A stretch of DNA of 64,000 nt from Bdellovibrionales bacterium (lineage in GTDB: Bacteria > Bdellovibrionota > Bdellovibrionia > Bdellovibrionales > UBA1609). The notes beneath the pieces are model-generated. The model had not been told where the DNA came from, searched no databases, and was given only the letters and a program-made list of their open reading frames with translations. The DNA lies in contig JAAOIH010000004.1 of NCBI GenBank assembly GCA_015163875.1, positions 11,984 through 75,983 of the forward strand, written 5' to 3'. Shown piece by piece: positions 2-48,831 of this stretch; position 1 is the first letter of the stretch, and every line of letters begins with the position of its first letter. The translations under genes and the position numbers were made by a program.

Positions 2-415
2 CATTTTTCTTTGGCAAAAGGTATTATTAGATATTCTTATTTAAATGCATGTTATGTTTGGAATAAGCCTGTTAAATTAAATAAAAAAGGATTGCATTCA
101 TTAACTAGTAAAAGTTATTCAGATAAAATATCTTTTAAGCTTTCTATTAATAAAATATATAATAGATCAAGAAGAGAAAGAATTAATTGTACATTTGCAA
201 GAAAAGATAACAGATTTTATTGGTTTGGATTACAATTTGCAAAATATTATAGAAGAGAGAACAGAAATCACAAGCCATCTTTGTTGCCTGATTATCTGTT
301 AAGCTATTCTTATAATAAATCTACAAGAGGTGTTTCTAGTGTAAAAAATTATAATACTTTTTTTAAATCACCAAGTATCGGAGAATGGTTTCATATTAAC
401 AATCCTTTAAAATAA
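2..415 (+). CDS. hypothetical protein, possibly 5'-truncated by the window edge
   Basis: ORF 11..415 (TTG at 11) stays open in frame back to base 2. Its stop lies immediately before the pyrE ATG (418), which suggests translational coupling. No motif recognised. Confidence 0.3.
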   Translation, partial: HFSLAKGIIRYSYLNACYVWNKPVKLNKKGLHSLTSKSYSDKISFKLSINKIYNRSRRERINCTFARKDNRFYWFGLQFAKYYRRENRNHKPSLLPDYLLSYSYNKSTRGVSSVKNYNTFFKSPSIGEWFHINNPLK

Positions 416-417
416 AA

Positions 418-942
418 ATGACTAAAGAAGATTTAAAGCAAAATATTTATAATGCATCTTATTTAACAGGAAAATTTTTACTTAGATCAGGGCAATACTC
501 TTCTGAATATTTTGATAAATATAGATTTGAATCAGATCCTTTTTTGTTAAAATCAGTGGCAAATGAATTAAAAAATTTAATTCCAAGTAATACAGACATT
601 TTAGCAGGACTAGAAATGGGAGCTATACCTATTGCCGCAGCAATTTCTATGGAGTTAAATTTACCATGTGTATTTGTCAGAAAAGAGGCTAAAAAATACG
701 GAACTAGCAAAATTATAGAAGGCATAGATATAAAAGACAAAAATGTTTGTATCATTGAAGATGTTATTACAACTGGAGGCCAGGTCTTATTAAGTTTAGA
801 AGATTTACGAAAAGATGGAGCAAGAGTTAATACGGTTGTTTGTGTAATTGACAGAAGCATATCGCCTATACAAAAATTTGCTGACAAAAATTTACATATA
901 AAAAGTTTATTTACAAAAAAAGATTTTGATAGTTGTAAATAA
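418..942 (+). CDS. pyrE: orotate phosphoribosyltransferase
   Basis: Short-type PyrE pattern: FLLRSGQYSSEYFD, VFVRKEAKKYGT and the PRPP-binding loop VCIIEDVITTGG. Confidence 0.9.
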   Translation: MTKEDLKQNIYNASYLTGKFLLRSGQYSSEYFDKYRFESDPFLLKSVANELKNLIPSNTDILAGLEMGAIPIAAAISMELNLPCVFVRKEAKKYGTSKIIEGIDIKDKNVCIIEDVITTGGQVLLSLEDLRKDGARVNTVVCVIDRSISPIQKFADKNLHIKSLFTKKDFDSCK

Positions 943-2393: not shown

Positions 2394-2479
2394 GGTACGG
2401 ATAGGGAGACTTGAACTCCCATGGTGTTGCCACCGGTGGATTTTGAATCCACTACGTCTACCAATTCCGCCATATCCGC
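2393..2479 (-). tRNA. tRNA-Leu (anticodon CAA), class II with long variable arm, CCA encoded
   Basis: Minus-strand read: GCGGATA acceptor pairing with TATCCGT plus A-CCA. Anticodon stem GTGGA/TCCAC with loop TTCAAAA. T-arm GGGAGTTCAAGTCTCCC. Long variable arm. Confidence 0.9.
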
Positions 2480-12933: not shown

Positions 12934-14370
12934 TTATAGATCTAGATTTTCTGAATCTTCACTTTTTGAATCTTTGTTTTCATAATTTTTTTCTTCAGTA
13001 GCTTCATTCTCAAAATCTTCTTCTAAATCTGTAGCTTCTGAGCCTGTAGCTTCTGGGTCTGTAGCTTCTGAGCCTGTAGCTTCTGAGTCTGTAGCTTCTG
13101 AAATATCATTTTCTAAATTGTACTCTTCTGAAGTAGTATTTTTTGTATTATTTTTTTCTAATATTTTATCTTCCTTGCTGTCACTTTCTAAATTTTTATC
13201 ACCTAAATTGTCATCATCTAAGTCACCATCTAAGTCACCATCTAAGTCATCATCTAAATCATCGCCATCTAATATGTCTTCTTCAAAATTTTCTTCATCA
13301 CCAAATTCGTTGTCTATCAAGTTTGTTTTATTATTAGATGACCCTAAGTCACTTGCTTGATCAAAGCTTCCAACTCTGTCTCCTAGTTGAACATCTGAAA
13401 TAATTTTACTAATTACTGCTGTGGAGGTGTTTTTTTTAATATCTATAATATTAATATAGGCAACAGCCTTATCTCCCCATTGTTTTATTCCACCTCGAGA
13501 TTTTAAATTTTGATATACTGGCAAAGTATCGCCTATTTTTAAAAATTCATCTGAGCCTACATTTAAATAAACTAAAGAATGTAAACCAAACAGTTCTGGT
13601 GAAGGTATGGCCTTTCCTCCGATAATTAAGCCAACCCTAGAAAGCTCTTTGCTGTTGTTAATATTTTTTGAAATAAAAAATTTATTAACTTTTCCATCAA
13701 TAACAGAGTCTCCTGCGGTAACTGAAAAAAATGATTTCGTAATTTTAGCTTTATACTCTTTGTAAAAAGATTCTTCGGTGTTATCTACAATTTCAATAAT
13801 TTGTAACTCAGCTTTTACACGAAGAAGGCCTTCAAAAAGTAATTTGTTTTTAAAATAGGCTGGCTTAGTTTCTATAACTCTAAGCAACTGTCCGAGTCTT
13901 ATATTGCTATCATCAAAAACTTTAATAAATATATTCTGACCTTTAGAGTATAAAAGTTTTCTTCCATCAGCTAATGTGCTGCCTATAACTTTTGGCTCAT
14001 TTTCTATAATCATGCTGCTTAAATGAATATAGTGGGCTTGGCTACTTAGCTCAGGCTCTACAAATTCAATAGACAAATTATTAAACTTGTCTTCTTTTAA
14101 TTTATGGTAAATATTTGACCAGTTAGGAAAGCTTGATGGAAATTTTTTAAGTATTGGCTTTGGTGTTATTTTTGATTTTGGCAAAATCACTTTTTTTTTA
14201 TATTTAACTATATTGCCATCTTCATTTGCTTTTTTAAACATAACAGTAATCATTTTTCTTTTATTCTGATTTACTGGTATAAATTTTGAAGAATTACTAG
14301 AATCAGCCTTAATATTCATGCTTAAAGTAAATACTATTGCTAAAATAGTAAGTATAAAATTCCTAATCAT
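12934..14370 (-). CDS. exported protein with two beta-rich GD-x-V modules and an acidic repeat tail
   Basis: Signal peptide MIRNFILTILAIVFTLSMNIKA. The C-terminal ~130 aa are Asp/Glu-rich with (DLDG/DLDD)n and (SEATx)n repeats. No family recognised. Confidence 0.6.
   Translation of the reverse strand: MIRNFILTILAIVFTLSMNIKADSSNSSKFIPVNQNKRKMITVMFKKANEDGNIVKYKKKVILPKSKITPKPILKKFPSSFPNWSNIYHKLKEDKFNNLSIEFVEPELSSQAHYIHLSSMIIENEPKVIGSTLADGRKLLYSKGQNIFIKVFDDSNIRLGQLLRVIETKPAYFKNKLLFEGLLRVKAELQIIEIVDNTEESFYKEYKAKITKSFFSVTAGDSVIDGKVNKFFISKNINNSKELSRVGLIIGGKAIPSPELFGLHSLVYLNVGSDEFLKIGDTLPVYQNLKSRGGIKQWGDKAVAYINIIDIKKNTSTAVISKIISDVQLGDRVGSFDQASDLGSSNNKTNLIDNEFGDEENFEEDILDGDDLDDDLDGDLDGDLDDDNLGDKNLESDSKEDKILEKNNTKNTTSEEYNLENDISEATDSEATGSEATDPEATGSEATDLEEDFENEATEEKNYENKDSKSEDSENLDL
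13031..13102. repeat. 15-bp tandem repeat, ~4.8 copies (GTAGCTTCTGAGCCT-like), in frame within the acidic tail
   Basis: Copies at 13031, 13046, 13061 and 13076, plus a partial copy at 13091. They encode SEATD/SEATG/PEATG units on the minus strand. Confidence 0.9.
13215..13262. repeat. 12-bp tandem repeat, 4 copies (CATCTAAGTCAC-like)
   Basis: Copies at 13215, 13227, 13239 and 13251. They encode the GDLD/DDLD units of the acidic tail. Confidence 0.9.
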
Positions 14371-27323: not shown

Positions 27324-27423
27324 TAATCCGATATTTTTCGGACTATTATTTTTAAAAAGGCTTTTAAGTACAAATAAAAAATACTATTAATTGCATACTT
27401 CTTTTAAAAAAAAGGAGTACAAA

Positions 27424-27792
27424 ATGTCTATTTTTAAGTATTGGGCTACAACATGGTTTAGAAAAAGCAAAGGCTTACACACAAAATTAAGTTTTAATCC
27501 ACACCTTAACGCCTGTCATATTAGAAGAACTACGCAGTTAACACCTATGGTTGTACGAAACATAAAGGGGCAGGGCCTTATTGAGTATCTTATTATTGTT
27601 GGAATTATGGCAGTGGCAAGCCTTGGTGCAATTAGGCTTCTTAATAAAACAGTAAACAGTAATTTTACTAATATTATATATTCACTACAGGGCAAAAGAA
27701 AAAAAGCTAAAATGGAAGCTCCAAAAGAAAGTCTGTATAAAAAAAAAGATTTTAATACATTTATGAATGGCGCAGCTTCTACAGAAAAATAA
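27424..27792 (+). CDS. flp: Flp-family type IVb prepilin (alternative start 27547)
   Basis: Flp motif KG|QGLIEYLIIVGIMAVASLG. A strong SD (AAGGAG, 6 nt) precedes the ATG at 27424. The ATG at 27547 would give an 8-aa leader, MVVRNIKG. There is an unusual Lys-rich C-terminal tail. Confidence 0.7.
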   Translation: MSIFKYWATTWFRKSKGLHTKLSFNPHLNACHIRRTTQLTPMVVRNIKGQGLIEYLIIVGIMAVASLGAIRLLNKTVNSNFTNIIYSLQGKRKKAKMEAPKESLYKKKDFNTFMNGAASTEK

Positions 27793-27813: not shown

Positions 27814-28215
27814 ATGTCTACTTTGTATAAATATTTATTTAAAAAAACTATATTAAACCATAAGGGCCAAGCCTTAATTGAGTTTGTTATTAGTAATATC
27901 TTACTTATAAGCCTTGTAACACTTGGGTTTTTATTAATGTATATTAGTTTTTTAAAATATTTTAATCATGTAAATATTTACAACTCTACTATTTGTGTTG
28001 CAAAAAATCGACCTATTTTAATATGCAAATATAATTTAAGAAAAAATATTAAATCAACAATGTTTTTTGGTAGTATTAACAAATTAATATTAACAAAAAA
28101 ATACAAAACTATAACTGCATCTATAAAATGGAGTTTAAATAAATGGCAATTTCAAAAAAAAATAGTTCTTAATATGTCTTCATTGTCAAAAAATTTACCA
28201 ATAATAGAAAAATAG
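27814..28215 (+). CDS. TadE-like pseudopilin
   Basis: Leader plus KG|QALIEFVISNILLISLVTLGFLL, the same processing-site motif as the pilin. Confidence 0.6.
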   Translation: MSTLYKYLFKKTILNHKGQALIEFVISNILLISLVTLGFLLMYISFLKYFNHVNIYNSTICVAKNRPILICKYNLRKNIKSTMFFGSINKLILTKKYKTITASIKWSLNKWQFQKKIVLNMSSLSKNLPIIEK

Positions 28216-28217
28216 TT

Positions 28218-28889
28218 ATGGGAATTATATTATTTTTATCTTTTTTTCCAATGATGCTGGGCCTATGCCTTGGCTTTAACTTAAGCAGTCAGGTTGTTTA
28301 TTACAAACAAAAAGCTAGACATATTTGTCAGCAATATAATTTAGCAAATCAAAAACAATTACAAAAAAAATTAACAAGTCTTTTAAAGCTAAACACAATG
28401 GCTAAAAAAATAAGAACTAAACTAAGTTATGCAAAAAAATCTTTAAAAGCTGCTAAACTTAGCATGTCCCCTATAGCAGTTGCAGCTGCTCAAAGTTTTT
28501 TAACTTTTATTTTAGCTAAACAATTGATATTTTTTTATAAACAAAAAAAAATATTATACGAGGCTATTAAGATATCTAATAAAGCAAAAAAACAATTAAA
28601 AATACAATTGCACAAAGTGTTTAATAAAAAAAATATTAAAGATTACTCATATAAACAGCTGGGATTAGCTGTTTATTCTAAACCAGCACTGTCTCTTAGT
28701 CCTGATTATTACCTTTTACCTGCTTTTAGTTACGCTCAAGGAAGTTATACTTTGTTTTATTTAAATATCAAAAATTTAATGCCGGCATTGCTTAGAAAAA
28801 TTTTACCTAATTCAGATCTTTTTAAAATAAAATGCTCTGCAACTTTAATTAAACAAAAAAAAATAGAGTTAACATTATGGCAATATTAA
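28218..28889 (+). CDS. membrane-anchored hypothetical protein of the pilus operon (possibly TadG-like)
   Basis: N-terminal hydrophobic anchor and operon coupling (2-nt gap upstream, 13-nt overlap downstream). No firm motif. Confidence 0.35.
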   Translation: MGIILFLSFFPMMLGLCLGFNLSSQVVYYKQKARHICQQYNLANQKQLQKKLTSLLKLNTMAKKIRTKLSYAKKSLKAAKLSMSPIAVAAAQSFLTFILAKQLIFFYKQKKILYEAIKISNKAKKQLKIQLHKVFNKKNIKDYSYKQLGLAVYSKPALSLSPDYYLLPAFSYAQGSYTLFYLNIKNLMPALLRKILPNSDLFKIKCSATLIKQKKIELTLWQY

Positions 28890-29092
28890 AAAATAAAAAA
28901 GGGCAAATATTAATAGAAACACTAATAAGCCTTATAAGCCTTATTACTTTAATACTATTAAGCATTAAAGGAATAAAAAATGCTTATAGACTAAATAAAA
29001 AATATCAACACAAAGTTTATCAAAAAAATAAATTTGGAGTACTAATTAAAAAACCAAAATTGCAGTTTAAAAAGGATGGATATTATGTATAA
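28877..29092 (+). CDS. small pilin-like protein (71 aa)
   Basis: MAILKNKKG|QILIETLISLISLITLILL has the same KGQxLIE site with Glu at +5. Confidence 0.5.
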   Translation: MAILKNKKGQILIETLISLISLITLILLSIKGIKNAYRLNKKYQHKVYQKNKFGVLIKKPKLQFKKDGYYV

Positions 29093-29624
29093 AAAACAAA
29101 AACTACAGGTTTTATTTGTTAAATTGCTTGGGTATTTTAATAAATATAAAAAAGTGATTATAAAAGCCAGTTTAAAAAAACAATTATTTTTTGCTTTTTT
29201 ATTTTCTTTATTTTCGTTAATGTTAATTAATAATAATCCAGAAAACCCTATTGCAAAACAAAAAAACATTAAAACAGATTGGAATATGAATACTTTTATA
29301 CCAGAGGGTTTTGTACTTATACCTATTCAATTACTTAATGCAGAAAGCTTAAACGGACTAATTGGCAAATGGGGCTGGGTTAGTTTGTACTCTAGTTTAA
29401 TTGAAAAAAACAAAAAACCTATAGTTTCGTCTATTAGAATAATTAGAAGCCCTAAAAATAATAATCAATTTGCCGTTTTGTCTCCAGAAAATAAATCATC
29501 TTTGATTTTAGAGCATACAGCTCCTTTAGTTGCTGTAATACAAGGGGCTAAGATAAAAAATAAGTCTACCCGTTTTAATACAAAAAAAATTATAAAAAAA
29601 AATAAGATTTTAATTGAAAATTAA
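29076..29624 (+). CDS. cpaB: short CpaB/RcpC-like pilus assembly protein
   Basis: TM anchor followed by IPEGFVLIPIQLLNAESLNGLI...VSLYS...FAVLSPENKSSLILEHTAPLVAVIQG, which fits the C-terminal CpaB pattern. The SAF part appears to be missing. Confidence 0.45.
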   Translation: MDIMYKKQKLQVLFVKLLGYFNKYKKVIIKASLKKQLFFAFLFSLFSLMLINNNPENPIAKQKNIKTDWNMNTFIPEGFVLIPIQLLNAESLNGLIGKWGWVSLYSSLIEKNKKPIVSSIRIIRSPKNNNQFAVLSPENKSSLILEHTAPLVAVIQGAKIKNKSTRFNTKKIIKKNKILIEN

Positions 29625-29648: not shown

Positions 29649-30749
29649 ATGCAGAGGTCAAGTATAATGAATATTTTAAATATCAGAAAAAAACAAATTG
29701 TTAAACTAAAATCTGTTTTTATTTTTTTACAAATACTGTTAATTATACATACTAATTTTCTTATTATCCCCCACTCTTTTGCTGCACAAAATAATACAAA
29801 AAATAACACAGAAAATAAAAAAAGACCTTTAATTTTAGCATATTCTGCCACAGATGCAGATTATCAAGGTTTTTTGCATTTTTCTAAATCTTTTTATTCT
29901 TTTTCTCAGGAATATTTAAATAAACAAAATTTAAATACAAAAAAATTACAAGATCAATTTAAAATTGCTCAAGATTTATATTTTCAAGGAAAAACTTTAC
30001 AAGCTACAGATAAGTTTAAAAATATTATAAAACAAAAATGGGATAATGACTGGACTGTTAAACAAAAAAATTGGATATATTTTTCTTTTTTAAGATTGTC
30101 TCAAATATCTGATGACTTCAGAATAAAACACCTACTAATAAAAGAAGCAATATCTTTTGCGCCAGAAAAAAGACCAAATTATAAAGTATTTAGCCCTCCA
30201 TTTTTAAAACTTTATAATAAATTACACGCAAATATACAGTGGTCTTATATTAATAATTATTTAAAAATACAAAATTATAAAAAAATTATAATAAACGGAA
30301 AGGTATTTGATATTAAGCCAGATATAAAAATACCAGTAAATTCTCTTAAAAAATTTAGACTAAGCCTTTTGTCTAATAAAGTTGAGGTGTATTCTAAAAT
30401 TACAGATTACCATTCGTTTTCTACAGATAATATTTTACAAAAACCTCTTGTAACAGGTACTTGCAAAAAATTTAAAAACCACAGTGCTTACAAATATTCT
30501 ATATTTTTTACTAATTCTTGCATAAAAAATAATAAAAAAGTAACTAAACATACAAAATCTGATATAAAAATTTCTGAAATTAATTTATTTCCAAAACAAA
30601 ATTTAACTCCATTAAAAAAGAAAAAAGAAAAATTAATTACTATAAAAAAGAGCACATGGATTTTAGTTGGCTTGGCAATTGTTGGGACTGCAATTTTAAC
30701 TTCTAGATTGTCTAGAAGGCCTACTCATAAAATTGGCTTTGATGATTAA
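29649..30749 (+). CDS. exported hypothetical protein with a C-terminal TM anchor
   Basis: Signal-like N-terminus (...IIPHSFAAQ), a helical TPR-like stretch, and a C-terminal helix WILVGLAIVGTAILT. No family recognised. Confidence 0.45.
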   Translation: MQRSSIMNILNIRKKQIVKLKSVFIFLQILLIIHTNFLIIPHSFAAQNNTKNNTENKKRPLILAYSATDADYQGFLHFSKSFYSFSQEYLNKQNLNTKKLQDQFKIAQDLYFQGKTLQATDKFKNIIKQKWDNDWTVKQKNWIYFSFLRLSQISDDFRIKHLLIKEAISFAPEKRPNYKVFSPPFLKLYNKLHANIQWSYINNYLKIQNYKKIIINGKVFDIKPDIKIPVNSLKKFRLSLLSNKVEVYSKITDYHSFSTDNILQKPLVTGTCKKFKNHSAYKYSIFFTNSCIKNNKKVTKHTKSDIKISEINLFPKQNLTPLKKKKEKLITIKKSTWILVGLAIVGTAILTSRLSRRPTHKIGFDD

Positions 30750-32092
30750 TTTTTAATAATTACTTTTCCGTTAAAGCAAACTTCTAAAATTTTTTGATTT
30801 TGTTCATCTAATATTGTGTGTGAGTTTTTTGTCCATTCTTTGTCTGGGTGTGTGTGGTAGTAAATCCAATGTTTATTAATATTAGCAATCCCCCATTTTT
30901 CAGCCTCTGTTAATGCTTTTTTATTTAAAAATAAAGAAGATTCTTCAACCGGACTATCACTTCCAAAATAAAATAATTGTTTTTGGTCTTCTAACTTTTT
31001 CCATAAAAATAAATCTTTTATGCTTTCTTTAGGTAATTTATCTTTTAACCAATATTTATCACTTAAAAAATGACATGGTTGTAAATGACAAATAATATTT
31101 TTATATTTAGATAATATTTCTAAGCTATTTTGACTTAATAATTGAACATGCTCTAAATTTAAATTTTTTATTGGTATTTTTTTTTGTTTAAATTCTTCAA
31201 TAACTGATTCTGCAATTTTAAGAACATCATAAGAGGCTTTGTCTCCAATAACATGTACAGAAAAATCTAAATTAGACACCCAAGATTGTTTTAACATTTC
31301 TTTTAAATCTGAGGCTGGTATTAATGGCTTAGCGCCTAAAGTTATATTAGAGTCATTTAAGTACTTTGAGTTTAATAATGCTGTATTAGAGCCAAGAGAT
31401 CCGTCATAATATACTTTAACACCGCATACTTTAATGTTAATTAAATTTTCTTTTTTTGCAATAATTGAAAATTTTAAAGCTTCATAAAAATCATTAGGAT
31501 TTTCTACTCCCATATTTTGTTCAATTTTTAAGCTTAACAAAGAATCCATGTTTAATAAACAGCTCCAATAATCTTTATCACAAGACATATCTCTTACATG
31601 AGTAAAACCTGCAGAATTAAAATATGCTTGTGCAGATTTTATAGAATTATTAATTTGCACAATGCTATAAGATTTAAGTTTATTTTGTATTTTTGCTTTT
31701 AAGTTATCATGCAATAAGCCAGATGATTTACATGCAAATTTTTTTAAAGCTAAGCTATTTAACCAAGCGCTATGCCCGTCTGAGCTTACAAAAAAAACAG
31801 GATGCTTAAAAAAATATTTATCTAATACATCAAAATAAGAAAATTTATCTTGTCCCCAAATATTATTTTTAGAATCTTTCCATAAATTTTTTTTAAATAA
31901 ATTATTATCCCAACCAAATCCAAATAAAACATCGCCTCTAAAATGATGTTGTTTAATATTTAGATTTAATAAATCTTTTGGAAATTTTAAAATAGAAAGA
32001 TCTAAAGTTTTAAGCTTTAGACCTGTTCCTAATAAATGAATATGACTATCGTAAATTCCATTAACACAAAGTGGTAATTGTTTGTTTTTCAA
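30746..32092 (-). CDS. amidohydrolase-family metal-dependent hydrolase (YtcJ-like)
   Basis: N-terminal GIYDSHIHLLGTG (HxH metal motif). The later HVIGD and FGSDSPVE motifs are typical of Amidohydro_3-type enzymes. Confidence 0.7.
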   Translation of the reverse strand: MKNKQLPLCVNGIYDSHIHLLGTGLKLKTLDLSILKFPKDLLNLNIKQHHFRGDVLFGFGWDNNLFKKNLWKDSKNNIWGQDKFSYFDVLDKYFFKHPVFFVSSDGHSAWLNSLALKKFACKSSGLLHDNLKAKIQNKLKSYSIVQINNSIKSAQAYFNSAGFTHVRDMSCDKDYWSCLLNMDSLLSLKIEQNMGVENPNDFYEALKFSIIAKKENLINIKVCGVKVYYDGSLGSNTALLNSKYLNDSNITLGAKPLIPASDLKEMLKQSWVSNLDFSVHVIGDKASYDVLKIAESVIEEFKQKKIPIKNLNLEHVQLLSQNSLEILSKYKNIICHLQPCHFLSDKYWLKDKLPKESIKDLFLWKKLEDQKQLFYFGSDSPVEESSLFLNKKALTEAEKWGIANINKHWIYYHTHPDKEWTKNSHTILDEQNQKILEVCFNGKVIIKN

Positions 32093-32116: not shown

Positions 32117-34909
32117 TTAAAACCCACCTCTTGCTGGTCTCTTGTCACCACGATTATCTTTATCTCTTACATTTTGGTCGCAAGATCTAAAATTACTAGC
32201 ATAAGTTCCACAATCAGGAGTATTTGTGTTTGAGCCATCACCAATTCCTACTGTAAATCCTCCGTTGAATCCTCCGTTGAATCCTCCGTTGAATCCTCCG
32301 TTGAATCCTACTCCTACGCCGCCGCCGCCGCCGCCGCCGAAATTATTGTCATAAGGTGCGCTGGCAATTTGTTGCATTTGTAATTGCAATTGATAAATTT
32401 GTTGTTGAAATCCAGAAATTTTCTGATTTCTTTGTTGTTTTTGATTGTTAATACTTTGTTGTTGTTGAATCCATGCGCTAACATTTTGTTGGTACTGTTG
32501 AGCTAATTGCAATTGATATTGTTGTCCTAAATTTATTCCACCGCCGCCACCGAAGTTGCCGCCTCCTCCTGGGAATCCGCCTAAGCCACCACCAAATCTG
32601 CCGCCACCTGGGAATCCGCCTAAGCCGCCGCCTGGGAATCCGACTAAGCCACCACCAAATCTGCCGCCACCTGGGAATCCGCCTAAGCCACCGCCGAAGT
32701 TGCCGCCTCCACCTGGGAAACCACCTGGGAATCCGCCTAAGCCACCGCCAAATCCTCCGCCGCCTGGGAATCCACCTAAGCCACCACCAAATCCGCCTCC
32801 ACCTGGGAAACCGCCTAAACCACCGCCGAAGTTGCCGCCTCCACCTGGGAAACCACCTGGGAATCCGCCTAAGCCACCGCCAAATCCGCCGCCTCCTGGG
32901 AAACCACCTGGGAAACCGCCTCCACCTGGGAAACCGCCTAAGCCACCGCCGAAGTTGCCGCCTCCACCTGGGAAACCGCCTAAGCCACCGCCGAAGTTGC
33001 CGCCTCCACCTGGGAAACCACCAAATCCGCCGCCTCCTGGGAAACCACCTGGGAAACCGCCATTACCGCCTCTTATCATTTGTACATAAGGGTTAATGCC
33101 CATTTGAAATGGAGCCCCTCCCATTGGTCCGAATACTTGTGGAGGGTAGCCAAAAGCTCCTCCAACAACAGGTTGTCCGTATGCTCCAGATCCTACTCCA
33201 CCGTTACTCCAAAAATTTCCATCTGGTTGAATTTGAAATCCTCCAATAGATTGTGCGCAACTATAAGAACCAGAATAACTAGCAGATCCTGTTAAAGAAC
33301 CATATCCACCTTGATTATAATATCCGCGGTAATAATATCCAGCGCCTCCTGCACCTGAATTACTAGAAGAGCTGTTAGCAAAAGCAGAGTTTACTGTATT
33401 AAGACCAAATAATGCACCTTGTACACCTAATAAACTAGATTGTTGAGACAATAACTCTGCGTCAGTTTCGTAACCTAAAGACTGATTAGCGTCTATTGCA
33501 TATTTTGCAGATTTGTCTCCAAGTCCAGAAAGTAATTTAGATCCGCCCCAAGCCCCCAAAAGACTTGCGCCTAATTGCAACCAAGGAGAAGTGCTCTTTT
33601 TTTGTACTTGAGCCTGCCCTGCTGGTCCGTAATAAATAAAACCAGGTGCTGAGCCTCCAGATCCTGCGTGAGTTACACAATCTTCACAACCACCCTCAAC
33701 TGCGTCTGCTAATTCTTCTAAATCATCAGCTTCTTTATAATTTTTTACGTTTTTTTCTAGGTCTAATAATTTTTCTCTGTTAGAATCTAAATCTGCAATT
33801 AATTTTGAACAAGCTTCAACATGTTTTTCTTTAGAGGGGGATTTGCTTTTTTTACCAGTTTTCCATATTTTAGTATAAGAACAAATATCTTTTGGAATAC
33901 CATTAGCAAAATTTGCATCTTTATCAACACACCCGGTTGACTCAGGCTCTGTTGTAGCGCTGATTGACGGAGTGTCTACAGCAATAGTGTCAACATAATA
34001 ATTACAATTATCGTCAGAGTTTTCGTCACAATCACTAGTAGAAGATGAGCTAATTAAAGAAGCAGATGTAACTTCGTTTCTGTCTGTGCTCGGGCTACCT
34101 GTATATGCATCGTCGTAGGCATCAATTGCAGAACTTGAGTGACAAGAATTTTTTCCAACATCACATAAAGCTTTTGGAGTTGCCTTATTTATTTTAACTG
34201 CTTTTTCTCTATCCGCTTTTATACCTGCTTTTTTTTGAGTTAGTATTTTTCTTGCATCTTCTAAGGTTTTTTGCTTGTTGAATAGTTTAATTTGGCTTTT
34301 GATTTTAGATATTAATATTGTATTTTCAGCTAATTCGTCTTTTCTTATTATAGAATTCCATAGGCCTTCCAATTTTTCTTTTTTTTTAATTAATGCTTCT
34401 AGCTCACTTTGCAGTGACGATAAATGTTCTGATACTGTTTGATTTGCATCTGCTGCTTGATTTGCATCTGCTATTTTGTTTTCATCTATGATTTTTTGAT
34501 TGTCTTCTAATGCTTTTTTATTTTCATCTAATGCTTCTCTGTAACTATCTATACTGTTATTTATATCTGCAATCTGACCACCTCCACTTGAACAATATCC
34601 AAAGTTTAAAGAAAGCGGATTATCTTTAAATTTATTAATGTCATCAATAGCACCTTCTTTTAAATATTTACCAAGTGCTTTAATGGTTTTTTTAATTTTT
34701 TTCTTAGCAGCTTTTTGTTTTTTTGCTTGATCTTCAACAAAAGCCTTTTTAGTATGTTTGAAAATTTTTTTAGGTGTACATGCTTGTCTTCCTGGCTGTA
34801 TACCTGCCCCGTAATACGCTGATGCATATTCTGGCATTCCTAAAATGCTCATGCTAAATATTAAAATACTTATATTTATAAATTTCATAAAACAGAATAT
34901 TTGCTTCAT
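32117..34909 (-). CDS. 930-aa secreted low-complexity protein with coiled-coil, G/Y/S-rich, GFPGG-repeat, Gln-rich and FNGG-repeat regions
   Basis: Uninterrupted 2.8-kb ORF. RBS AGGAAAG lies upstream of the ATG at 34909, and the signal peptide ends in ...EYASA. Composition is described under findings. Confidence 0.8.
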   Translation of the reverse strand: MKQIFCFMKFINISILIFSMSILGMPEYASAYYGAGIQPGRQACTPKKIFKHTKKAFVEDQAKKQKAAKKKIKKTIKALGKYLKEGAIDDINKFKDNPLSLNFGYCSSGGGQIADINNSIDSYREALDENKKALEDNQKIIDENKIADANQAADANQTVSEHLSSLQSELEALIKKKEKLEGLWNSIIRKDELAENTILISKIKSQIKLFNKQKTLEDARKILTQKKAGIKADREKAVKINKATPKALCDVGKNSCHSSSAIDAYDDAYTGSPSTDRNEVTSASLISSSSTSDCDENSDDNCNYYVDTIAVDTPSISATTEPESTGCVDKDANFANGIPKDICSYTKIWKTGKKSKSPSKEKHVEACSKLIADLDSNREKLLDLEKNVKNYKEADDLEELADAVEGGCEDCVTHAGSGGSAPGFIYYGPAGQAQVQKKSTSPWLQLGASLLGAWGGSKLLSGLGDKSAKYAIDANQSLGYETDAELLSQQSSLLGVQGALFGLNTVNSAFANSSSSNSGAGGAGYYYRGYYNQGGYGSLTGSASYSGSYSCAQSIGGFQIQPDGNFWSNGGVGSGAYGQPVVGGAFGYPPQVFGPMGGAPFQMGINPYVQMIRGGNGGFPGGFPGGGGFGGFPGGGGNFGGGLGGFPGGGGNFGGGLGGFPGGGGFPGGFPGGGGFGGGLGGFPGGFPGGGGNFGGGLGGFPGGGGFGGGLGGFPGGGGFGGGLGGFPGGFPGGGGNFGGGLGGFPGGGRFGGGLVGFPGGGLGGFPGGGRFGGGLGGFPGGGGNFGGGGGINLGQQYQLQLAQQYQQNVSAWIQQQQSINNQKQQRNQKISGFQQQIYQLQLQMQQIASAPYDNNFGGGGGGGVGVGFNGGFNGGFNGGFNGGFTVGIGDGSNTNTPDCGTYASNFRSCDQNVRDKDNRGDKRPARGGF
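32256..32338. repeat. 12-bp x4 tandem repeat (AATCCTCCGTTG) followed by (GCC)7
   Basis: Four perfect copies at 32256..32303 encode (FNGG)4. GCC x7 at 32318..32338 encodes a Gly run. Confidence 0.9.
32538..33072. repeat. degenerate in-frame tandem repeats (39-54 bp units), GC-rich
   Basis: The plus-strand motif CCTGGGAA(A/T)CC recurs about 17 times. On the minus strand the region encodes GGFPGGGG(N)FGGGL units. Confidence 0.9.
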
Positions 34910-35167: not shown

Positions 35168-36313
35168 ATGCCTAAACAAAATTACTCTACTTATGGCCCG
35201 CTTAACAAAAGTTACAAAATTCTTTATATAGATACATGTTCTAAAAACACAGCAAATGTAATTGAGCTTTTGTCTGATCATTTTAAAATTCATACTGCAG
35301 CGTCTGTAAAAGAGGCTTTGTTACTAATTGATGACATAAGTTTTTCTTTAATTATAAGTCAGGTAATTTTAGAAAAACAAACTGGTATAGATTTTTTTAA
35401 ACAAGTAAAAGAAACTAATCTTTCTGACAGTATTCGTATTTTAATAACAGATAAAAATACAAAAAAAAATACTCTTATTGAGGCTATAAACAATGGAGAT
35501 ATATATCATTATCTTAAAGAGGGCTACTCACCATCTGAATTACAAAATCTTATTTACAAAGCCTTAAAACAATACGAAGCAAAGCTAACTATTGACCAAA
35601 AAGATTTAGAGTTAAAAAAAGCATATTCAGATTTAAAAGAATTAGACAAATCAAAAACACAATTTATGATGCTTATTAATCATGAACTAAAAACACCTTT
35701 AACTAATATTATTAATTTTATATCATTACTAAAAGTATCAAAACTAAATGATGAACAAGAAAAATACTTAAACTATATAGAAGGTAGCACTGGCACATTA
35801 AAAAAATTAATTGATGAAAGCTTAAGTTTTATATCGGCCGAAACTGGGCAGTTAAAATTAAATAAAAATATAGTTAGCATACCAGCTTTGTTGCAAAGCC
35901 CTTTAGAAAAATTACAAAAAAAAATAAAAAATAAAAAACAAAGTTTAGATTTAAAAATTTGTGATGACAAAATTAAAATTGATATAAAAATTATACAACA
36001 AATTTTAAATCATCTTTTACATAACGCAATAAAGTTTGGACCAGAAAATAGTGAAATTAGCTTTCATGTAACCAAGTCAGACAATTTAGAACTTGGATCA
36101 TTAAAATTTTCAATATCAAACACAGGAAAGGAAGTGCCAAAAGATATAGTAGAAAAAATATTTAAACCATTTGTTTTAAACGAACAAAACATGAACCACA
36201 GCCAAGGATTTGGCCTAGGCCTAAGCCTTTGCCAAGCACTATTAAAAGTTCACAAATCCCAATTAAAGTTTACTAATTCAAACAACATTACAAGCGTATA
36301 CTTTTATTTATAA
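35168..36313 (+). CDS. histidine kinase with an N-terminal pseudo-receiver domain
   Basis: Receiver-fold N-terminus with Gln at the phospho-acceptor position (SLIISQVIL; CAG at 35360..35362). H-box FMMLINHELKTPL. HATPase N-box HNAIKF and G-boxes GFGLGLS. Confidence 0.8.
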   Translation: MPKQNYSTYGPLNKSYKILYIDTCSKNTANVIELLSDHFKIHTAASVKEALLLIDDISFSLIISQVILEKQTGIDFFKQVKETNLSDSIRILITDKNTKKNTLIEAINNGDIYHYLKEGYSPSELQNLIYKALKQYEAKLTIDQKDLELKKAYSDLKELDKSKTQFMMLINHELKTPLTNIINFISLLKVSKLNDEQEKYLNYIEGSTGTLKKLIDESLSFISAETGQLKLNKNIVSIPALLQSPLEKLQKKIKNKKQSLDLKICDDKIKIDIKIIQQILNHLLHNAIKFGPENSEISFHVTKSDNLELGSLKFSISNTGKEVPKDIVEKIFKPFVLNEQNMNHSQGFGLGLSLCQALLKVHKSQLKFTNSNNITSVYFYL

Positions 36314-36400: not shown

Positions 36401-37669
36401 TTGTCTTGCTTGCCTATATTCATGTTTATTAAATTATTTAGCATATATGTAATATTTTTTACTTTTTTATCTTTTTCGTTATCTAAAAATATTGTTATCG
36501 GAGTTTATCAATCTTTTAATATACGCACCCCCAAAACTACACAAGTTAATGTACAGGGTGGAAAATACATTAGATTGCAGGATTTTACTAAATTTTTAAA
36601 AATTACTGGCAAAAAAAAAGGCGTTAGTTATATTCAGGTAAAAAATAAAAATTTTGTTGTTAATGTATTAAGTGCTAATGATTATAAAAACTATCAGCTT
36701 ATTAAAAATAAAATTAAATTTTTTTGGGGCCCAAAACTTAATATAATAAATGGAGAAATTGCAATTACCGGAAAAATTCACAGATTTAGTGATTGGTTAG
36801 ATATTTCTAAATTATCTGGTGATATTAATTATATATTTAAAGCTAAAATAGATGCAGACCTCCACATAAAAATAAAAAAATATTTAACCAAACTATGTAA
36901 AAGTAACTTTATACCATGTCCTAATATACAATTAAAACCTTATCCTAAATTAACTGCACCTAAAAAAACAAAAAAATATTTAAAACAATGGACATCTATT
37001 TTTAAAAAATTTGGATTATCTATTTTTTTTACATCATCTGTTTTAGATTTAGAACCAAATATACATATTCAAGTTTTAATTGCTGAAGTTAATAAAAATT
37101 TTCAAAAACAAATTGGTTTAAAATGGGGAAGCTCTGTGCAGGCGCAACTTTTACCATCTTTTTCTATTAATGATTCACTTCCACTGGCATTAAAAATGTT
37201 ACAAAGCTCTGGTGAGGGTCAAATTTTAGCGCAACCTAATTTGCTTGTAAAAAGTGGATCAGAGGCAAAATTTTTAGCTGGAGGCGAATTTCCTATTAAA
37301 ACCAGTGGAATAAAAAGACAGCATACTAGCTGGAAGCATTACGGGATTATATTAAAAATAAAAGCTTACAGAGGTTATAATAATAAAATTGAAAATCATT
37401 TAAGTGTAGAGATTTCTGATATTGATAATTCAAACACAGTAGACGGCATTCCATCTATAAAAAAAAGTCATATTAGTAGTATTATTAATACTACTAATAA
37501 TAACTACATTGCATTGTCTGGATTGTTAAAACATAACAGCGGACAAGACACAGACAGCTTGCCTTGGTTAAGCAAGCTTCCAGTTTTGGGTAATTTATTT
37601 AAAAGTAGTAATTTTAAAAATTCAAAAACAGAGTTAGTTATTTTTTTTAAATCCACTATTAAACAATAA
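36401..37669 (+). CDS. cpaC: CpaC/RcpA-type pilus secretin (start TTG 36401 or ATG 36422)
   Basis: Secretin core GQILAQPNLLVKSGSEAKFLAGGEFPI and LPWLSKLPVLGNLFKS. The N-terminus resembles the pilus-formation N-domain. Confidence 0.85.
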   Translation: MSCLPIFMFIKLFSIYVIFFTFLSFSLSKNIVIGVYQSFNIRTPKTTQVNVQGGKYIRLQDFTKFLKITGKKKGVSYIQVKNKNFVVNVLSANDYKNYQLIKNKIKFFWGPKLNIINGEIAITGKIHRFSDWLDISKLSGDINYIFKAKIDADLHIKIKKYLTKLCKSNFIPCPNIQLKPYPKLTAPKKTKKYLKQWTSIFKKFGLSIFFTSSVLDLEPNIHIQVLIAEVNKNFQKQIGLKWGSSVQAQLLPSFSINDSLPLALKMLQSSGEGQILAQPNLLVKSGSEAKFLAGGEFPIKTSGIKRQHTSWKHYGIILKIKAYRGYNNKIENHLSVEISDIDNSNTVDGIPSIKKSHISSIINTTNNNYIALSGLLKHNSGQDTDSLPWLSKLPVLGNLFKSSNFKNSKTELVIFFKSTIKQ

Positions 37670-37673
37670 TATT

Positions 37674-38783
37674 ATGTTAAAAATTTTTACTGCAGCAAAA
37701 AAATTAGAAGAACTTTTAAAGCAACATCAGGTTATAGACATTGCAAGTACAGACCATATTAATAATCCTCTTTACAATAAAAAAATGTTGCAAGAGATAA
37801 TACAAAAAAATTTAAGTGATTTAAATTTACAAGAACAAGAGCGTTTACTTCAAGATTTTTTAATTTATGGGCCACTACATTTACTTTTAAACAACGAAGA
37901 TGTTACAGAAATATTATGCAACGGCCATGATACTATTTATTATGAGGAGTTAGGGCAAATAAAAAAACATACTGATGTTTTTTTTTCAGAACATAACTAT
38001 CAATCTTTTGTTCAAAGAATTTTACTTGAAACAGGTCAACAAGTTAATTTAGAAAAACCTTTTACTGATGGCAAGTGGAAAAATTTTAGACTACATATAA
38101 TTCAATCTCCGCTGTCTAGTAAAAATACTTTTATTAGTTTAAGAAGAAAAGCAAAAGAGGCATGGACTTTAGAAAAATTAAAAACACTAGATAGCATAAC
38201 AGAAAAAGAACAACTTTTTTTACAAAATTTAATTAAAAGTAAAAAAAATATTTTAGTTATTGGCCCAACTAATAGCGGAAAAACTTCTTTGCTAAATGCA
38301 CTGTTACAAGAGGTAGAAAGTACAGATAGAGTTTTATGTATAGAGGACACAGATGAACTTAGTTCTCCAAATTCTTTATCTGGAAAACTATTAACCAGAA
38401 ACGATCCTCAAAAACAATTAACTAATTATAGTCAAACAGATTTACTTAAACAAAGTTTACGAATGAGACCTGACAGATTAGTGTTGGGAGAAATTAGATC
38501 TGACGAAGCAAAAGATTTTTTAATGATGCTTTCAACAGGTCACCAAGGTTGTATGGCTAGTCTGCATGCCGACCAAGCTCATCAAGCTTTATGGAGACTT
38601 GAAATGTTAATACAAATGGCAGCTCCTCAATGGAATAGTCGTAGTATTCAAAAACTAATAAGCCTTAGCTTAAACTATATTATTTTAATAAAGAAAAAAG
38701 ATAGAAAAAGACAAATTCATAGTATTCATGAAATAAAAACTTATGAAGATAGTATCGGCTTTATATTAGAAGAATTACTATAA
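37674..38783 (+). CDS. cpaF: CpaF/TadA-type secretion ATPase
   Basis: Walker A VIGPTNSGKTS, Asp box CIEDTDEL, Walker B/His box RMRPDRLVLGEIRSDEA...GHQGCMASLHA. Confidence 0.9.
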   Translation: MLKIFTAAKKLEELLKQHQVIDIASTDHINNPLYNKKMLQEIIQKNLSDLNLQEQERLLQDFLIYGPLHLLLNNEDVTEILCNGHDTIYYEELGQIKKHTDVFFSEHNYQSFVQRILLETGQQVNLEKPFTDGKWKNFRLHIIQSPLSSKNTFISLRRKAKEAWTLEKLKTLDSITEKEQLFLQNLIKSKKNILVIGPTNSGKTSLLNALLQEVESTDRVLCIEDTDELSSPNSLSGKLLTRNDPQKQLTNYSQTDLLKQSLRMRPDRLVLGEIRSDEAKDFLMMLSTGHQGCMASLHADQAHQALWRLEMLIQMAAPQWNSRSIQKLISLSLNYIILIKKKDRKRQIHSIHEIKTYEDSIGFILEELL

Positions 38784-38835: not shown

Positions 38836-38910
38836 TGGGATGTCGACAAGTGGTAAGTCAACAGATTTTGATTCTGTCATTCGCAGGTTCGAATCCTGCC
38901 ATCCCATCCA
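38836..38910 (+). tRNA. tRNA-Gln (anticodon UUG), CCA encoded
   Basis: Acceptor TGGGATG/CATCCCA, anticodon stem ACAGA/TCTGT with loop TTTTGAT, T-arm GCAGGTTCGAATCCTGC. Confidence 0.9.
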
Positions 38911-47355: not shown

Positions 47356-48831
47356 TTACTTTTTATTTTTAAGTTTTTTTAAAAAAAAACTAATTTTACT
47401 ATTATTAAATAACGAAACACTACTTATTTCATAACTTGGTAAAGATAAATTTTTAATTTTTTTTATAATATCTTGAGGTTTTAAAGTTGACGATAGTTTT
47501 AAATGAAACTCTGAACGGCTTAATGTTTGAACTTGTACATCTAAGACCTCTCGCATGTGAAATTTAAAAATAGAAATAAATTTATATAAATCAGATGGGT
47601 ACAAAGCTCCCTTTACTATTAAAGTAACTTCGTATGCCTGCAGCAAGGCTTTACTTTTTATTCCTACTAAATCTTTTAAAACCAAGTCTCCTGATTCTTT
47701 AAAAAATTCTAAAATTTGTTTTTTAATTTTTTTACTTATCTGTACAGGCGTCGTAGTTGATGTTTCAGGCCCTATGCTCCATTGTCTTTTTTTATTAAAA
47801 ACTACAACTGTTTTTTTATTAGAGGTTTTAAAAATTTTTAACATCAGCGTCATTTTTAATATTTGTTTTTGCTCGTCTAGTGAATATGATATCTCGGCAT
47901 TTAATATTAAATCGGGCTCCAAATAAGATGCTATTTTAATAGGGTAAAAAGAAGATTTTTTTAGCAAGTCTTTTGGTATAAATTTTTGAAAATTAAACTT
48001 TGTTGGATTAAAAAGATACAGTGACAAAGGTTTTGCCTGATTTGCAAAATATTTTAAAAATTGTAATTTTAAGTCATCTATTGTCCTGTCCAAACTTGTT
48101 TGTTTATTTAACACAGAGTTGTTTTTGTCTTCTGTGATAATAGATAGAGATTTTTTATCTATTTGATTTTTAGATTCTATATCTATTGCAGATGAATATA
48201 AAGATACATTACTTTTTTGCCACCAATTTTTTGCATAACCTGTTTTAGTGTTTAATATATTAAACATTGGTAAAATATTAAATTTATCTTTAATGATATG
48301 AAGAAGGCCTTCTTTGTCTAATATTTTTTTTAAATTTATAAAAGATATTTTTAATCTAACACTTGCAGTAGATATAAAAGAAAATTTTGAATTTATATTA
48401 AACTTAAAAACTTTTTCTGAAAAAATATAATACTTAGTTTTTTTATCTATTATAAACTGTAGTCGCCTTTTTAAAGACTTTATTTTGTTGTCCTCTAAAA
48501 CAATATTAAATAAAACCTGTGAAACCTTGTGCCTTGCGTCTTTTAAGGCCAAAAAATAAATTTGGCTTTTTGGCAAACTATGCCAATTAGAATTCTTTAA
48601 TTTAGTATTAACATGATAAAATGGAAACTCTAGCTCCAGGCTACTATTTCCTTGTAGTGCTTTATTTTTAACAAATTCTAAAAATTTTTTTTGATGTAGT
48701 TGTTTATCTTTGATTATTTTTAAAGCAGACTCTTTCATGCCTTCTGGTAAATTTAACAGGTTAAGATTTTGCTCTGATTTAGCTGGTAAAAAAAATACTA
48801 ATATTAAAAAAAAAACAACGGACTTAAACAT
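47356..48831 (-). CDS. exported hypothetical protein (491 aa)
   Basis: Signal peptide MFKSVVFFLILVFFLPAKS. There is a 5-nt gap to lipB. No family recognised. Confidence 0.5.
   Translation of the reverse strand: MFKSVVFFLILVFFLPAKSEQNLNLLNLPEGMKESALKIIKDKQLHQKKFLEFVKNKALQGNSSLELEFPFYHVNTKLKNSNWHSLPKSQIYFLALKDARHKVSQVLFNIVLEDNKIKSLKRRLQFIIDKKTKYYIFSEKVFKFNINSKFSFISTASVRLKISFINLKKILDKEGLLHIIKDKFNILPMFNILNTKTGYAKNWWQKSNVSLYSSAIDIESKNQIDKKSLSIITEDKNNSVLNKQTSLDRTIDDLKLQFLKYFANQAKPLSLYLFNPTKFNFQKFIPKDLLKKSSFYPIKIASYLEPDLILNAEISYSLDEQKQILKMTLMLKIFKTSNKKTVVVFNKKRQWSIGPETSTTTPVQISKKIKKQILEFFKESGDLVLKDLVGIKSKALLQAYEVTLIVKGALYPSDLYKFISIFKFHMREVLDVQVQTLSRSEFHLKLSSTLKPQDIIKKIKNLSLPSYEISSVSLFNNSKISFFLKKLKNKK

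Follow-up and report, generated by a model that had tools for sequence, protein, structure and literature searches.

What kind of protein is encoded by the long glycine-rich open reading frame (ORF) that lies in the middle of a Tad-like pilus and secretin locus of a Bdellovibrionales bacterium, and what might it do there? The ORF in question, hereafter the target, occupies positions 32117..34909 on the minus strand of a 64,000-nucleotide stretch of contig JAAOIH010000004.1 (the window); it is intact, starts with ATG, and encodes 930 amino acids (aa). A preliminary description could name no bacterial family for it. The protein is not unique: judged by its position and sequence, it belongs, as a divergent orthologue, to a Bdellovibrionales family that has no name, counts about 12 members, and shares its domain order. 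It is a real exported protein whose gene has been inherited together with a divergently transcribed sensor kinase gene and a minimal Tad-like pilin/secretin/ATPase module, probably of the flp3 type. A possible reading of its function, which we hold tentatively, is that the target would be an exported, disulfide-bonded, oligomeric protein of cohesive or elastic character, residing in the envelope or on the surface and working with the Tad-like module.

That no bacterial family can be named was borne out by every search. The target had no matches in Pfam, NCBIfam, or PHROGs (in Pfam and NCBIfam none at E ≤ 1), sequence searches of the PDB returned coiled-coil noise alone, and aa 1-615, run exhaustively by phmmer through 1.84e9 representatives, gave no matches. 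When the target itself served as query for DNA-pattern scans, neither GTDB genomes nor JGI metagenomes yielded relatives, an exact-sequence look-up of the protein found no record, and a word-indexed search of the full protein against 5.8e9 proteins gave nothing, its candidate filter (8000) having probably been saturated by Gly-rich words. In the literature, neither a described glycine-rich protein of Bdellovibrio Tad loci nor a bacterial abductin-like protein was found.

Position in the genome was more informative. A genome scan based on the ATPase encoded in the window led to seven Bdellovibrionales loci, and wherever the flanking sequence suffices these share one gene order: an Amidohydro_3 gene and the gene for a Gly-rich exported protein on one strand, and a receiver-HisKA-HATPase kinase gene followed by secretin and T2SSE ATPase genes on the other. 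The slot is filled by a Gly-rich exported protein in at least seven Bdellovibrionales metagenome loci (L002, L003, L005, L007, L008, L009, and L017), with small pilin-like genes beyond the amidohydrolase of the relatives. Both flanking genes and four more neighbors are orthologous between the window and these loci (28-46% identity, E 1e-14 to 1e-104), with order and orientation kept. Identity of the window proteins to those of the relatives is 30-34% for the amidohydrolase, 35% for the kinase, 28-29% for the secretin, 44-46% for the ATPase, and 31-38% for a 182-aa upstream gene product, compared with 22% over a collinear 337-aa alignment (E 0.05) for the target itself, which appears to be the fastest-evolving gene of the cluster and the most diverged member of its family. 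Profiles built from the relatives recovered eight database proteins alone (P0001-P0008), all without a name or a Pfam domain, and a metagenome scan added L009-L011; as with the target, none of the relatives has a Pfam or NCBIfam match. The family is thus very rare, unnamed, and restricted to Bdellovibrionales. The preliminary description had called any functional link to the pilus or secretin genes speculation. A slot kept beside orthologous neighbors in at least seven loci is better than speculation; one lineage of the family, discussed below, has no secretin nearby.

Architecture points in the same direction as position. In full-length members a signal peptide is followed by the motif WGxGxYGxMQxC, a helix containing ALRxYLxDxAVxDI, a region of conserved Cys residues, and a second helix (…RLEAE…); then come TEGxxCxxC, a Gly-zipper-like helix, GGGTGxGAYGC, a conserved G/W/Y/P tract, and an uncharged Gly-rich repeat; and the C-terminal part consists of a Gln/Met-rich helix (…NExRRQQTLxSLNxELxSLMxRIQQVQ), (GSIGV)n, often a C-x-G-x-S-C loop, and a terminal Arg. 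The target has a counterpart for every one of these elements except the terminal Arg, which is found in nine of nine full-length relatives, whereas the target ends in …RPARGGF. Its post-signal motif W/YGxGxYGxxQxC reads ASA|YYGAGIQPGRQAC, as against WGTGLYGGMQSCP in the family, and CEDC at 408 and GSYSC at 547 stand where the relatives have C(Y/H/V/L/I)xC and GGGTGxGAYGC. AlphaFold2 (AF2) models of the target and P0001 show equal secondary-structure elements in equal order, both models being of low confidence (overall predicted local distance difference test, pLDDT, ~40).

The best-conserved element is the Gln-rich helix (Q block), which was aligned by hhalign with a six-member full-length profile at a score of 116.6 (E 2.7e-14), the maximum among 40 local-composition-preserving shuffles being 80.5; it is predicted to be helical in the AF2 models of both the target and P0001. 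Composition-preserving shuffles score up to ~80, so that raw hhalign E-values were discounted and the Q-block match alone was counted as significant. Three weaker collinear matches (the N-terminal motif, the Gly-zipper region, and the pre-repeat tract) are individually not above the shuffle null, and the N-domain of the target, which reaches E 5e-4 to 1.2e-3 and a probability of 19-31% against the profile, scores within the shuffle range. Orthology is therefore argued from position, flanking orthologues, architecture, and the Q-block match, and sequence similarity of the N-domain plays no part in it.

Within the family, the target shares slot, orientation, and the order of elements from the signal peptide to the C-terminal Cys pair, but it also departs from its relatives in several ways. 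It is ~300 aa longer, the surplus lying in an additional N-terminal helix, an expanded G/Y/S segment, and an enlarged array; it has Phe in place of Met and a GGF end in place of Arg; the spacing of its Cys loop is nine residues rather than four; and its N-domain is not BLAST-detectable.

Looking for orthologues and repeat-number variation had been proposed in the preliminary description; orthologues were found, and the repeat unit of the low-complexity tract is different in every member, containing M, F, N, or P. It is GFPGGGG(N)FGGGLG in the window, MMGGMPMMGG in L002, MNGMMAMNGQ in L005, GQFNPFFGGGGGFGGPGFGG in L003, GGFPGMGNGMGG in P0001, GGGFPAMMGGGFPAQFGGAVG in P0002, and GMPMMGMQMSS in P0004 and P0007. 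The tract of the target has 242 aa, of which 53% are Gly and 25% hydrophobic or aromatic stickers, with four charged residues; those of the relatives have 88-194 aa, 29-44% Gly, 26-43% stickers, and 0-1 charged residues. A sticker occurs every 4-7 positions, being Phe in the target and Met, Phe, Trp, or Tyr in the relatives; Met, the dominant sticker in most members, is replaced by Phe in the target. Neither the GFPGG unit nor RGD nor the C-terminal GGF shows conservation in the relatives. What the members do have in common here is a composition class, namely a Gly-rich tract that is free of charge or nearly so, in which hydrophobic residues recur at regular spacing, and that is followed by a Gln-rich helix. 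Tract length also varies between close relatives: when L010 (9989-11716) is compared with P0005 (L015, 10001-11536), whose DNA is 99.3-99.8% identical, in-frame deletions of 58 aa and 6 aa are confined to the low-complexity tract, and 510 of 511 residues outside it are identical, which reflects either a real length polymorphism or assembly collapse.

The abundance of Met in some of these tracts (21-28% in relatives, as MxxM or MGGM) might suggest that the protein is a periplasmic Cu(I)/Ag(I) binder acting through Met-rich repeats. However, the tract of the target has 1% Met, with Phe in its place, those of P0001 and P0002 have 8-9%, and no copper-resistance genes lie nearby, and we regard metal binding as hardly credible.

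The gene itself is well supported. A ribosome-binding site, AAGGAAAG, lies 5 nt before the ATG, and since the chance of 930 sense codons in a row at a guanine-cytosine (GC) content of 27% is P ~2e-36, a chance origin of the ORF is excluded. Peptide units that are identical in the protein are encoded by up to seven DNA versions, whose differences fall at synonymous sites alone; this argues that the array has diverged under peptide-level constraint and did not arise from a trivial assembly collapse or duplication. Logan contigs from SRR11301536 and SRR11301537, which are independent assemblies of the same organism, match the window at 99.7-100% and carry exact copies of neighboring proteins. These contigs end within the repeats of the target, L013 stopping at codon ~637 and L018 beginning in the FNGG repeat; because short-read contigs break within the array, window positions 32285-33017 (array and Q block) are covered by the present assembly alone. 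The copy number of the repeats is therefore that of the present assembly, without independent confirmation, while both ends of the gene are confirmed by other contigs, including the tail apart from one S->A difference (window ~32233). The reading frame is further supported by the family-conserved Q block and tail, which follow in frame after the array. It should also be mentioned that in the L003 orthologue (5483-5731; metagenome-assembled genome [MAG] JAOASS010000016) the Gly repeat contains a run of N (scaffold gap) and a frame change, and assemblies commonly fail at the Gly tract in this family. In the ORF at 29649-30749 (+), a 12-nt in-frame indel at 29785-29796 distinguishes the window from contig L018 (tandem NNTK/NNTE duplication); this indel and the S->A difference in the tail of the target are strain-level variation in the sponge population from which the contigs derive.

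Breakage of short-read contigs in the repeats, the gap in the L003 orthologue, and the divergence of the target, which exceeds that of every other gene of the cluster by a wide margin, could be taken as signs of misassembly or of gene decay in a reduced genome. This explanation is extremely improbable, given the frame that is intact over 930 codons in AT-rich DNA, the Q block and tail in frame after the array, the synonymous-only divergence of the units, and the confirmation of both ends by independent contigs.

Codon usage in the array is atypical. Compared with background genes, Phe is encoded by TTC in 79% versus 1% and Asn by AAC in 71% versus 19% of cases, Pro codons are 100% CCA, and GC content at third codon positions is 0.44 versus 0.18; Phe is encoded by TTC in every FP dipeptide and by TTC or TTT in FG. 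Amplification of a founder unit is likely the simplest explanation, which also accounts for the local GC peak (45% versus 27%), although selection against T-runs or slippage may be an alternative cause. An antisense ORF opposite the array (32556..33089, plus strand; 177 aa, Pro/Lys/Asn-rich) is almost certainly a mirror of GGN (Gly) codons and not a gene. A scan for promoters and terminators did not rise above shuffle level and was uninformative.

The same sequencing runs suggest where the organism lives. SRR11301536 and SRR11301537 hold metagenomic reads of a tedaniid demosponge that was living at a hydrothermal vent in the Okinawa Trough, and a bin of a Bdellovibrionales symbiont of ~1.2 Mb is reported from it (PMC8518922). 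The low GC content of the window (27%) and the identity of its ATPase to those of Bdellovibrionales/Pseudobdellovibrionaceae MAGs (43-48%) fit with this bin, and the window most likely comes from the ~1.2-Mb Bdellovibrionales symbiont of the deep-sea vent sponge. In a genome said to be strongly reduced, the window holds sizeable ORFs without a Pfam match at 12934-14370 (-) and 47356-48831 (-), encoding 478 and 491 aa, respectively. Elsewhere in the window, the region 10046-12526 (-) encodes an 826-aa protein of unusual architecture, in which a response-regulator receiver occurs together with DUF4388 and a DnaJ (J) domain, and a tRNA at 2396-2479 (-), scored by Rfam at 54 bits, runs into the annotated 5' end of an S13 D-Ala-D-Ala carboxypeptidase ORF (975-2483), the true start of which is probably further downstream.

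The segment anatomy and motif counts of the preliminary description were all recovered in the translation. All coordinates of the following elements are on the minus strand. A Sec-type signal peptide without a lipobox, recognized from the sequence, spans aa 1-31 (34817..34909; …PEYASA|YYGAG); it is the sole Kyte-Doolittle-19 hydrophobic peak above 1.2, and neither a membrane span beyond it nor a beta-barrel signal was seen in the target, and a membrane-spanning topology was thus rejected. The mature chain begins with YYGAGIQPGRQAC (34778..34816), which corresponds to the family motif WGxGxYGxMQxC(P) in alignments A1 and A6 and in hhalign (window 31-100 against profile 25-112). Long Lys/Glu-rich helices at aa 48-95 and 112-241 (34187..34768), seen by hhalign and in the AF2 model, where pLDDT is 50-79, form a probable coiled-coil rod; this region holds ALGKYLKEGAIDDI, matching ALRxYLxDxAVxDI of the family, and is ~100 aa longer than that of the relatives. 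It is followed by a Ser/Asp/Thr-rich region at aa 245-357 (33839..34177) that is disordered by composition and AF2 and contains Cys 249, 256, 294, 302, 327, and 343, the relatives having conserved Cys residues in the equivalent region.

A second helix at aa 358-406 precedes a CxxC motif (CEDC, aa 408-411; 33677..33838), the family equivalent being …RLEAE… followed by TEGxxCxxC. Two amphipathic, Gly-zipper-like helices are predicted by AF2 at aa 442-477 and 484-510 (33380..33586), with a hydropathy too low for a membrane span; the hhalign match of this region pairs window 438-483 with profile 283-324. From aa 516 to 886 the chain is nearly uncharged and contains 14 FG and 17 FP dipeptides. This part opens with a G/Y/S-rich segment ending in …GSYSC (aa 516-551; 33257..33364), an expansion of the family motif GGGTGxGAYGC, and continues with the G/P/aromatic tract GAFGYPPQVFGPMGGAPFQMGINPY (aa 552-613; 33071..33256), which corresponds in alignment A6 to the family tract MWGYPQGMWG…GGMFNAGFSPWGMNG…NPYG and is weakly matched by hhalign (window 546-608 against profile 350-412). 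The tandem array GFPGG(GG)(N)FGGGLG covers aa 614-793 (32531..33070) in 13-14-aa units and a 44-aa super-unit; it is 63% Gly, with 28 F, 17 P, 10 L, 7 N, no D or E, and 2 R. The Q block follows at aa 794-852 (32354..32530), with 24 Q in 59 residues (41%), its assignment coming from hhalign and from an AF2 helix at 792-849 (pLDDT 58-75). A Gly run and (FNGG)4 at aa 853-886 (32252..32353) take the place of (GSIGV)n in the relatives, and the C-terminal tail (32117..32251, including the stop codon) carries the Cys pair C900/C910, the RGD tripeptide, and the GGF end where the relatives have C-x-G-x-S-C and a terminal Arg. In total, the target contains 200 Gly (21.5%) and 15 Cys, one in the signal peptide and 14 in the mature chain, and the motifs FPG (17 copies), GGFPGG (16), FGGGL (9), FNGG (4), and RGD (at 920). 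Structure comparison by Foldseek, also proposed in the preliminary description, found nothing against the PDB below E = 3.9.

Both exclusions made in the preliminary description proved sound. The array is not collagen-like, as it lacks G-X-Y periodicity (Gly at 0.62/0.63/0.65 in the three phases; lag-3 autocorrelation -0.16), nor is it RTX, with no GGXGXD motif and no D or E. Other candidates were also rejected: membership in the harpin, curli, PE_PGRS, or any further named family of Gly-rich bacterial proteins for lack of a Pfam or NCBIfam model match; Flp/TadE-F-G pilin identity on the grounds of a type I Sec signal (AXA) and the absence of the class III motif G/xxxxE(Y/F), which neighboring ORFs do carry; an origin of the secretin and Gly-rich pair in a prophage or filamentous phage on the grounds of chromosomal synteny, the CpaF-like ATPase, and the absence of PHROG matches; and a functional role of the RGD tripeptide, since conservation in the relatives is lacking.

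The Q block, together with the short Gly-hydrophobic tandem repeats that follow it in all full-length members and the prion-like composition of the G/Y/S/N/Q segment of the target, might lead one to think of a functional amyloid or biofilm-matrix subunit, in which the Gln block and the short G-x repeats (GSIGV or FNGG) form cross-beta fibres independently of the pilus genes. However, the Q block is predicted to be helical rather than beta, there is no Pfam similarity to the curli, Fap, TasA, or chaplin families, and no dedicated amyloid secretion or nucleator genes lie nearby, which makes this explanation very unlikely.

In composition the target exhibits its closest similarities to abductin and to cohesive FG domains and, among bacterial proteins, to harpins, although these are likenesses only and no membership is claimed. 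Abductin, the extracellular hinge elastomer of bivalves, consists of GGFGGMGGGX repeats with about 50-60% Gly. Like the target, it combines Gly with Phe and/or Met in short, essentially uncharged tandem units, and its stickers are those of the family: Phe in the target, Met in relatives, and both in P0001. As an animal protein, however, it is not expected to be homologous, it lacks the coiled-coil, Cys-rich, and Gln-rich modules, and it is compared here by composition. FG-nucleoporins are eukaryotic and cytoplasmic or nuclear, with longer hydrophilic spacers. Those of the GLFG type resemble the target in having uncharged, disordered Phe-Gly repeats with N/Q, coiled-coil tethers, and a place by a large channel (here the secretin gene); unlike them, the relatives use Met and not Phe as sticker, and a gating role at the secretin is pure conjecture.

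Harpins (HrpN/HrpZ) are Gly-rich proteins secreted by type III secretion systems, without a Sec signal, Cys, or a coiled-coil build. The likeness lies in their bacterial origin, their glycine content, GGGLGG and Met-rich runs, a secretin-containing export machine, and action at the envelope of another organism; the target differs in having a Sec signal, Cys, and coiled coils, and the harpin Pfam families are unmatched. On one rival reading, the target might be a secreted, harpin-like (glycine-rich and heat-stable) effector, or a substrate of the secretin machine that resembles a translocator; it would be delivered to prey or host at the contact site and act there on membranes or cell walls. 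That a predatory lineage has kept it next to secretin and secretion-ATPase genes would be in keeping with such a role, as would the Gly/Met runs of the relatives (MMGGMPMMGG, GGGLGG), which recall harpin low-complexity tracts, and a low-complexity region that evolves rapidly and is polymorphic in length, as expected at an interface with other organisms. Yet no harpin or other effector domain is matched in Pfam, harpins have neither the Cys nor the Sec signal, long coiled coils and a Gln-rich helix indicate a structural oligomer, and Tad systems are not known to export soluble proteins. We therefore consider an effector role doubtful.

Components of Tad/Flp systems themselves form a fourth point of comparison. 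The target is encoded among genes for Flp-like and TadE-like pilins, a secretin, and a CpaF-like ATPase, and it varies between species, as do the minor-pilin Tip complexes (PMC12075869). It differs from Tips, TadG, and RcpB/TadD (PMC12075869), however, in lacking a class III (G/xxxxEY) signal and vWA, TPR, or lipoprotein features, and no described Tad component has its composition.

The genes around the target place it within a partial Tad-like locus. An Amidohydro_3 (YtcJ-like) hydrolase gene without a signal peptide (30746..32092, -) lies 24 nt downstream of the target, with which it makes up a probable two-gene operon that is conserved in the relatives. Transcribed divergently from the target, across a shared intergenic region of 258 bp, is the (pseudo)receiver-HisKA-HATPase kinase gene (35168..36313, +), identified by Pfam and 35% identical to its orthologues, followed by the Pfam-identified genes for Secretin (36401-37669, +) and a CpaF/TadA-like T2SSE ATPase (37674-38783, +) and by a tRNA (38836-38907) that ends the secretin/ATPase unit. 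The pseudo-receiver noted in the preliminary description was verified: in the receiver (35168-35620, +) the phospho-acceptor Asp is replaced by Gln (IITDQRMP in relatives, IISQVILE in the window), and the DD pair is DT. Four relatives retain a canonical receiver; the pseudo-receiver is specific to the reduced genome of the window.

On the other side of the hydrolase gene lie, on the plus strand, an ORF for a Flp-like pilin (27391-27792; …KGQGLIEY…), and two TadE-like ORFs with class III signals (27814-28215 and 28877-29092). These ORFs were recognized by their class III motifs, KGQGLIEY, KGQALIEF, and KGQILIET; Pfam support for them is sub-threshold (Class_IIIsignal, E 1e-3; Flp_Fap, E 0.026). 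Three further ORFs have no assigned role (28218-28889, 29076-29624, and 29649-30749, +); the 182-aa one, which is CpaB-like, is orthologous in the relatives, and those at 28218-28889 and 29649-30749 (223 and 366 aa) are also without a Pfam match. The locus had been described as Tad-like, which is correct as regards the secretin and the CpaF-like ATPase, both solid, less so as regards the Flp-like pilin, which is sub-threshold, and incomplete in that no TadB/C, TadZ, or prepilin peptidase gene is present in the 64 kb.

In the relatives, the locus is a few genes from aspS, fliA, flhF, and flhA, with fliA-flhF-flhA 6-10 kb from the ATPase gene (L002, L003, and L007). In Bdellovibrio and like organisms, the "non-TAD" pilin gene flp3 is bd3297 in B. 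bacteriovorus and a11q_630 in B. exovorus, and its distance to fliA is 13 gene numbers in B. exovorus (a11q_617) and 21 locus-tag numbers in HD100 (bd3318) (PMC5430801). Because the gene order relative to fliA matches this published position, the locus of the window is probably the flp3 locus of these organisms, an assignment made from gene order and not from sequence. The flp3 locus has been described as not TAD-associated, yet at the locus of the window a secretin and a CpaF-like ATPase are encoded a few genes away. In laboratory predation the flp3 pilin was silent and could be dispensed with (PMC5430801).

The family gene is also found in a second context. In the lineage of L010, L015, and L016, an OmpR-type regulator gene (with a HAMP kinase gene in L015) lies directly upstream on the same strand as the family gene (L015 7876-13063; L016 9210-13069), and the family gene is convergent with a gene for a YcbB-like L,D-transpeptidase (Scaffold, PG_binding_1, and YkuD), with neither secretin nor ATPase nearby. 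A link to peptidoglycan is conceivable for this lineage, and the only neighbor common to both context types is a two-component sensor or regulator. These features underlie the main rival explanation, according to which the target is a periplasmic envelope-structure or stress protein that is a target or modulator of the adjacent two-component system, the secretin/ATPase neighborhood being historical rather than mechanistic. In its favor, a sensor kinase or regulator is the sole constant partner (divergent receiver-HisKA-HATPase in one context, OmpR and HAMP kinase in the other), an enzyme of the YcbB type is encoded convergently downstream in the second context, and the target combines a signal peptide and many Cys with no outer-membrane or secretion signal. 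Nevertheless, the linkage to pilin, secretin, and ATPase has outlasted a divergence so deep that the target is no longer BLAST-detectable, the second context comes from one lineage (L010 and L015 being 99% identical), and the kinase receiver of the window is without a phospho-acceptor. On balance we regard this envelope role as somewhat unlikely.

The reading of the target as a cohesive or elastic protein that works with the Tad-like module is built up as follows. The 14 mature Cys residues at family-conserved landmarks suggest an oxidizing compartment, either the periplasm or the outside. AF2 predicts long N-terminal helices and a Gln-rich helix near the C-terminus, with a disordered, uncharged Gly tract of ~240 aa (110-240 aa over the family) between them. 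The helices may oligomerize the protein, and the tract, with its sticker-and-spacer pattern, would self-associate; the outcome could be a material of cohesive, elastic, or gel-like character, located in the envelope or at the cell surface. The elastomeric, adhesive, hydrogel, or amyloid nature that the preliminary description considered is compatible with these data. This material might serve the Tad-like apparatus as an adhesive or elastic matrix at the site of contact with prey or sponge host or, alternatively, as a compliant seal around the secretin, and its expression would be set by the neighboring two-component kinase. That the target works with the secretin machine is suggested by how deeply its position amid the pilin, secretin, and ATPase genes is conserved, and its retention in a genome reported to be ~1.2 Mb in size (PMC8518922) points in the same direction.

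Several observations weigh against this proposal. Beyond the Q block, the target resembles the family weakly in sequence (BLASTP E 0.016-0.05), the AF2 models are of low confidence, with helices and oligomerization being predictions, and cohesive or elastic behavior is deduced from composition. The T2SSF platform protein (TadB/C), TadZ, and the A24 prepilin peptidase, absent from the window, may lie elsewhere in the genome. If the locus is indeed the flp3 locus, its pilin is one that laboratory predation does not need and that is not expressed there. Finally, the context of the L010/L015/L016 lineage implies that coupling to a Tad-like module is not universal.

A bolder version of the same idea is that the family constitutes a bacterial sticker-and-spacer material of the abductin or FG type, oligomerized by coiled coils and locked by disulfides, which would form an elastic or selectively permeable gel integral to a minimal Tad-like secretin machine, for example a compliant seal or plug at the predator-prey or symbiont-host junction, with sticker chemistry (Met versus Phe) and length retuned in each lineage. 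We consider this a long shot.

Even without a function, the target is no orphan, and a new and very rare protein family has been defined. Because this family is defined by composition and not by sequence, it offers a test case for the evolution of low-complexity domains under selection. Should the proposed role be correct, no earlier bacterial case would exist of a cohesive glycine material of the abductin or FG kind that is tied to a pilus/secretin apparatus. The role would also provide a candidate function for the flp3-type locus of Bdellovibrio-like organisms, and the retention of the module in a ~1.2-Mb sponge symbiont would suggest that it matters for association with host or prey, beyond classical predation.

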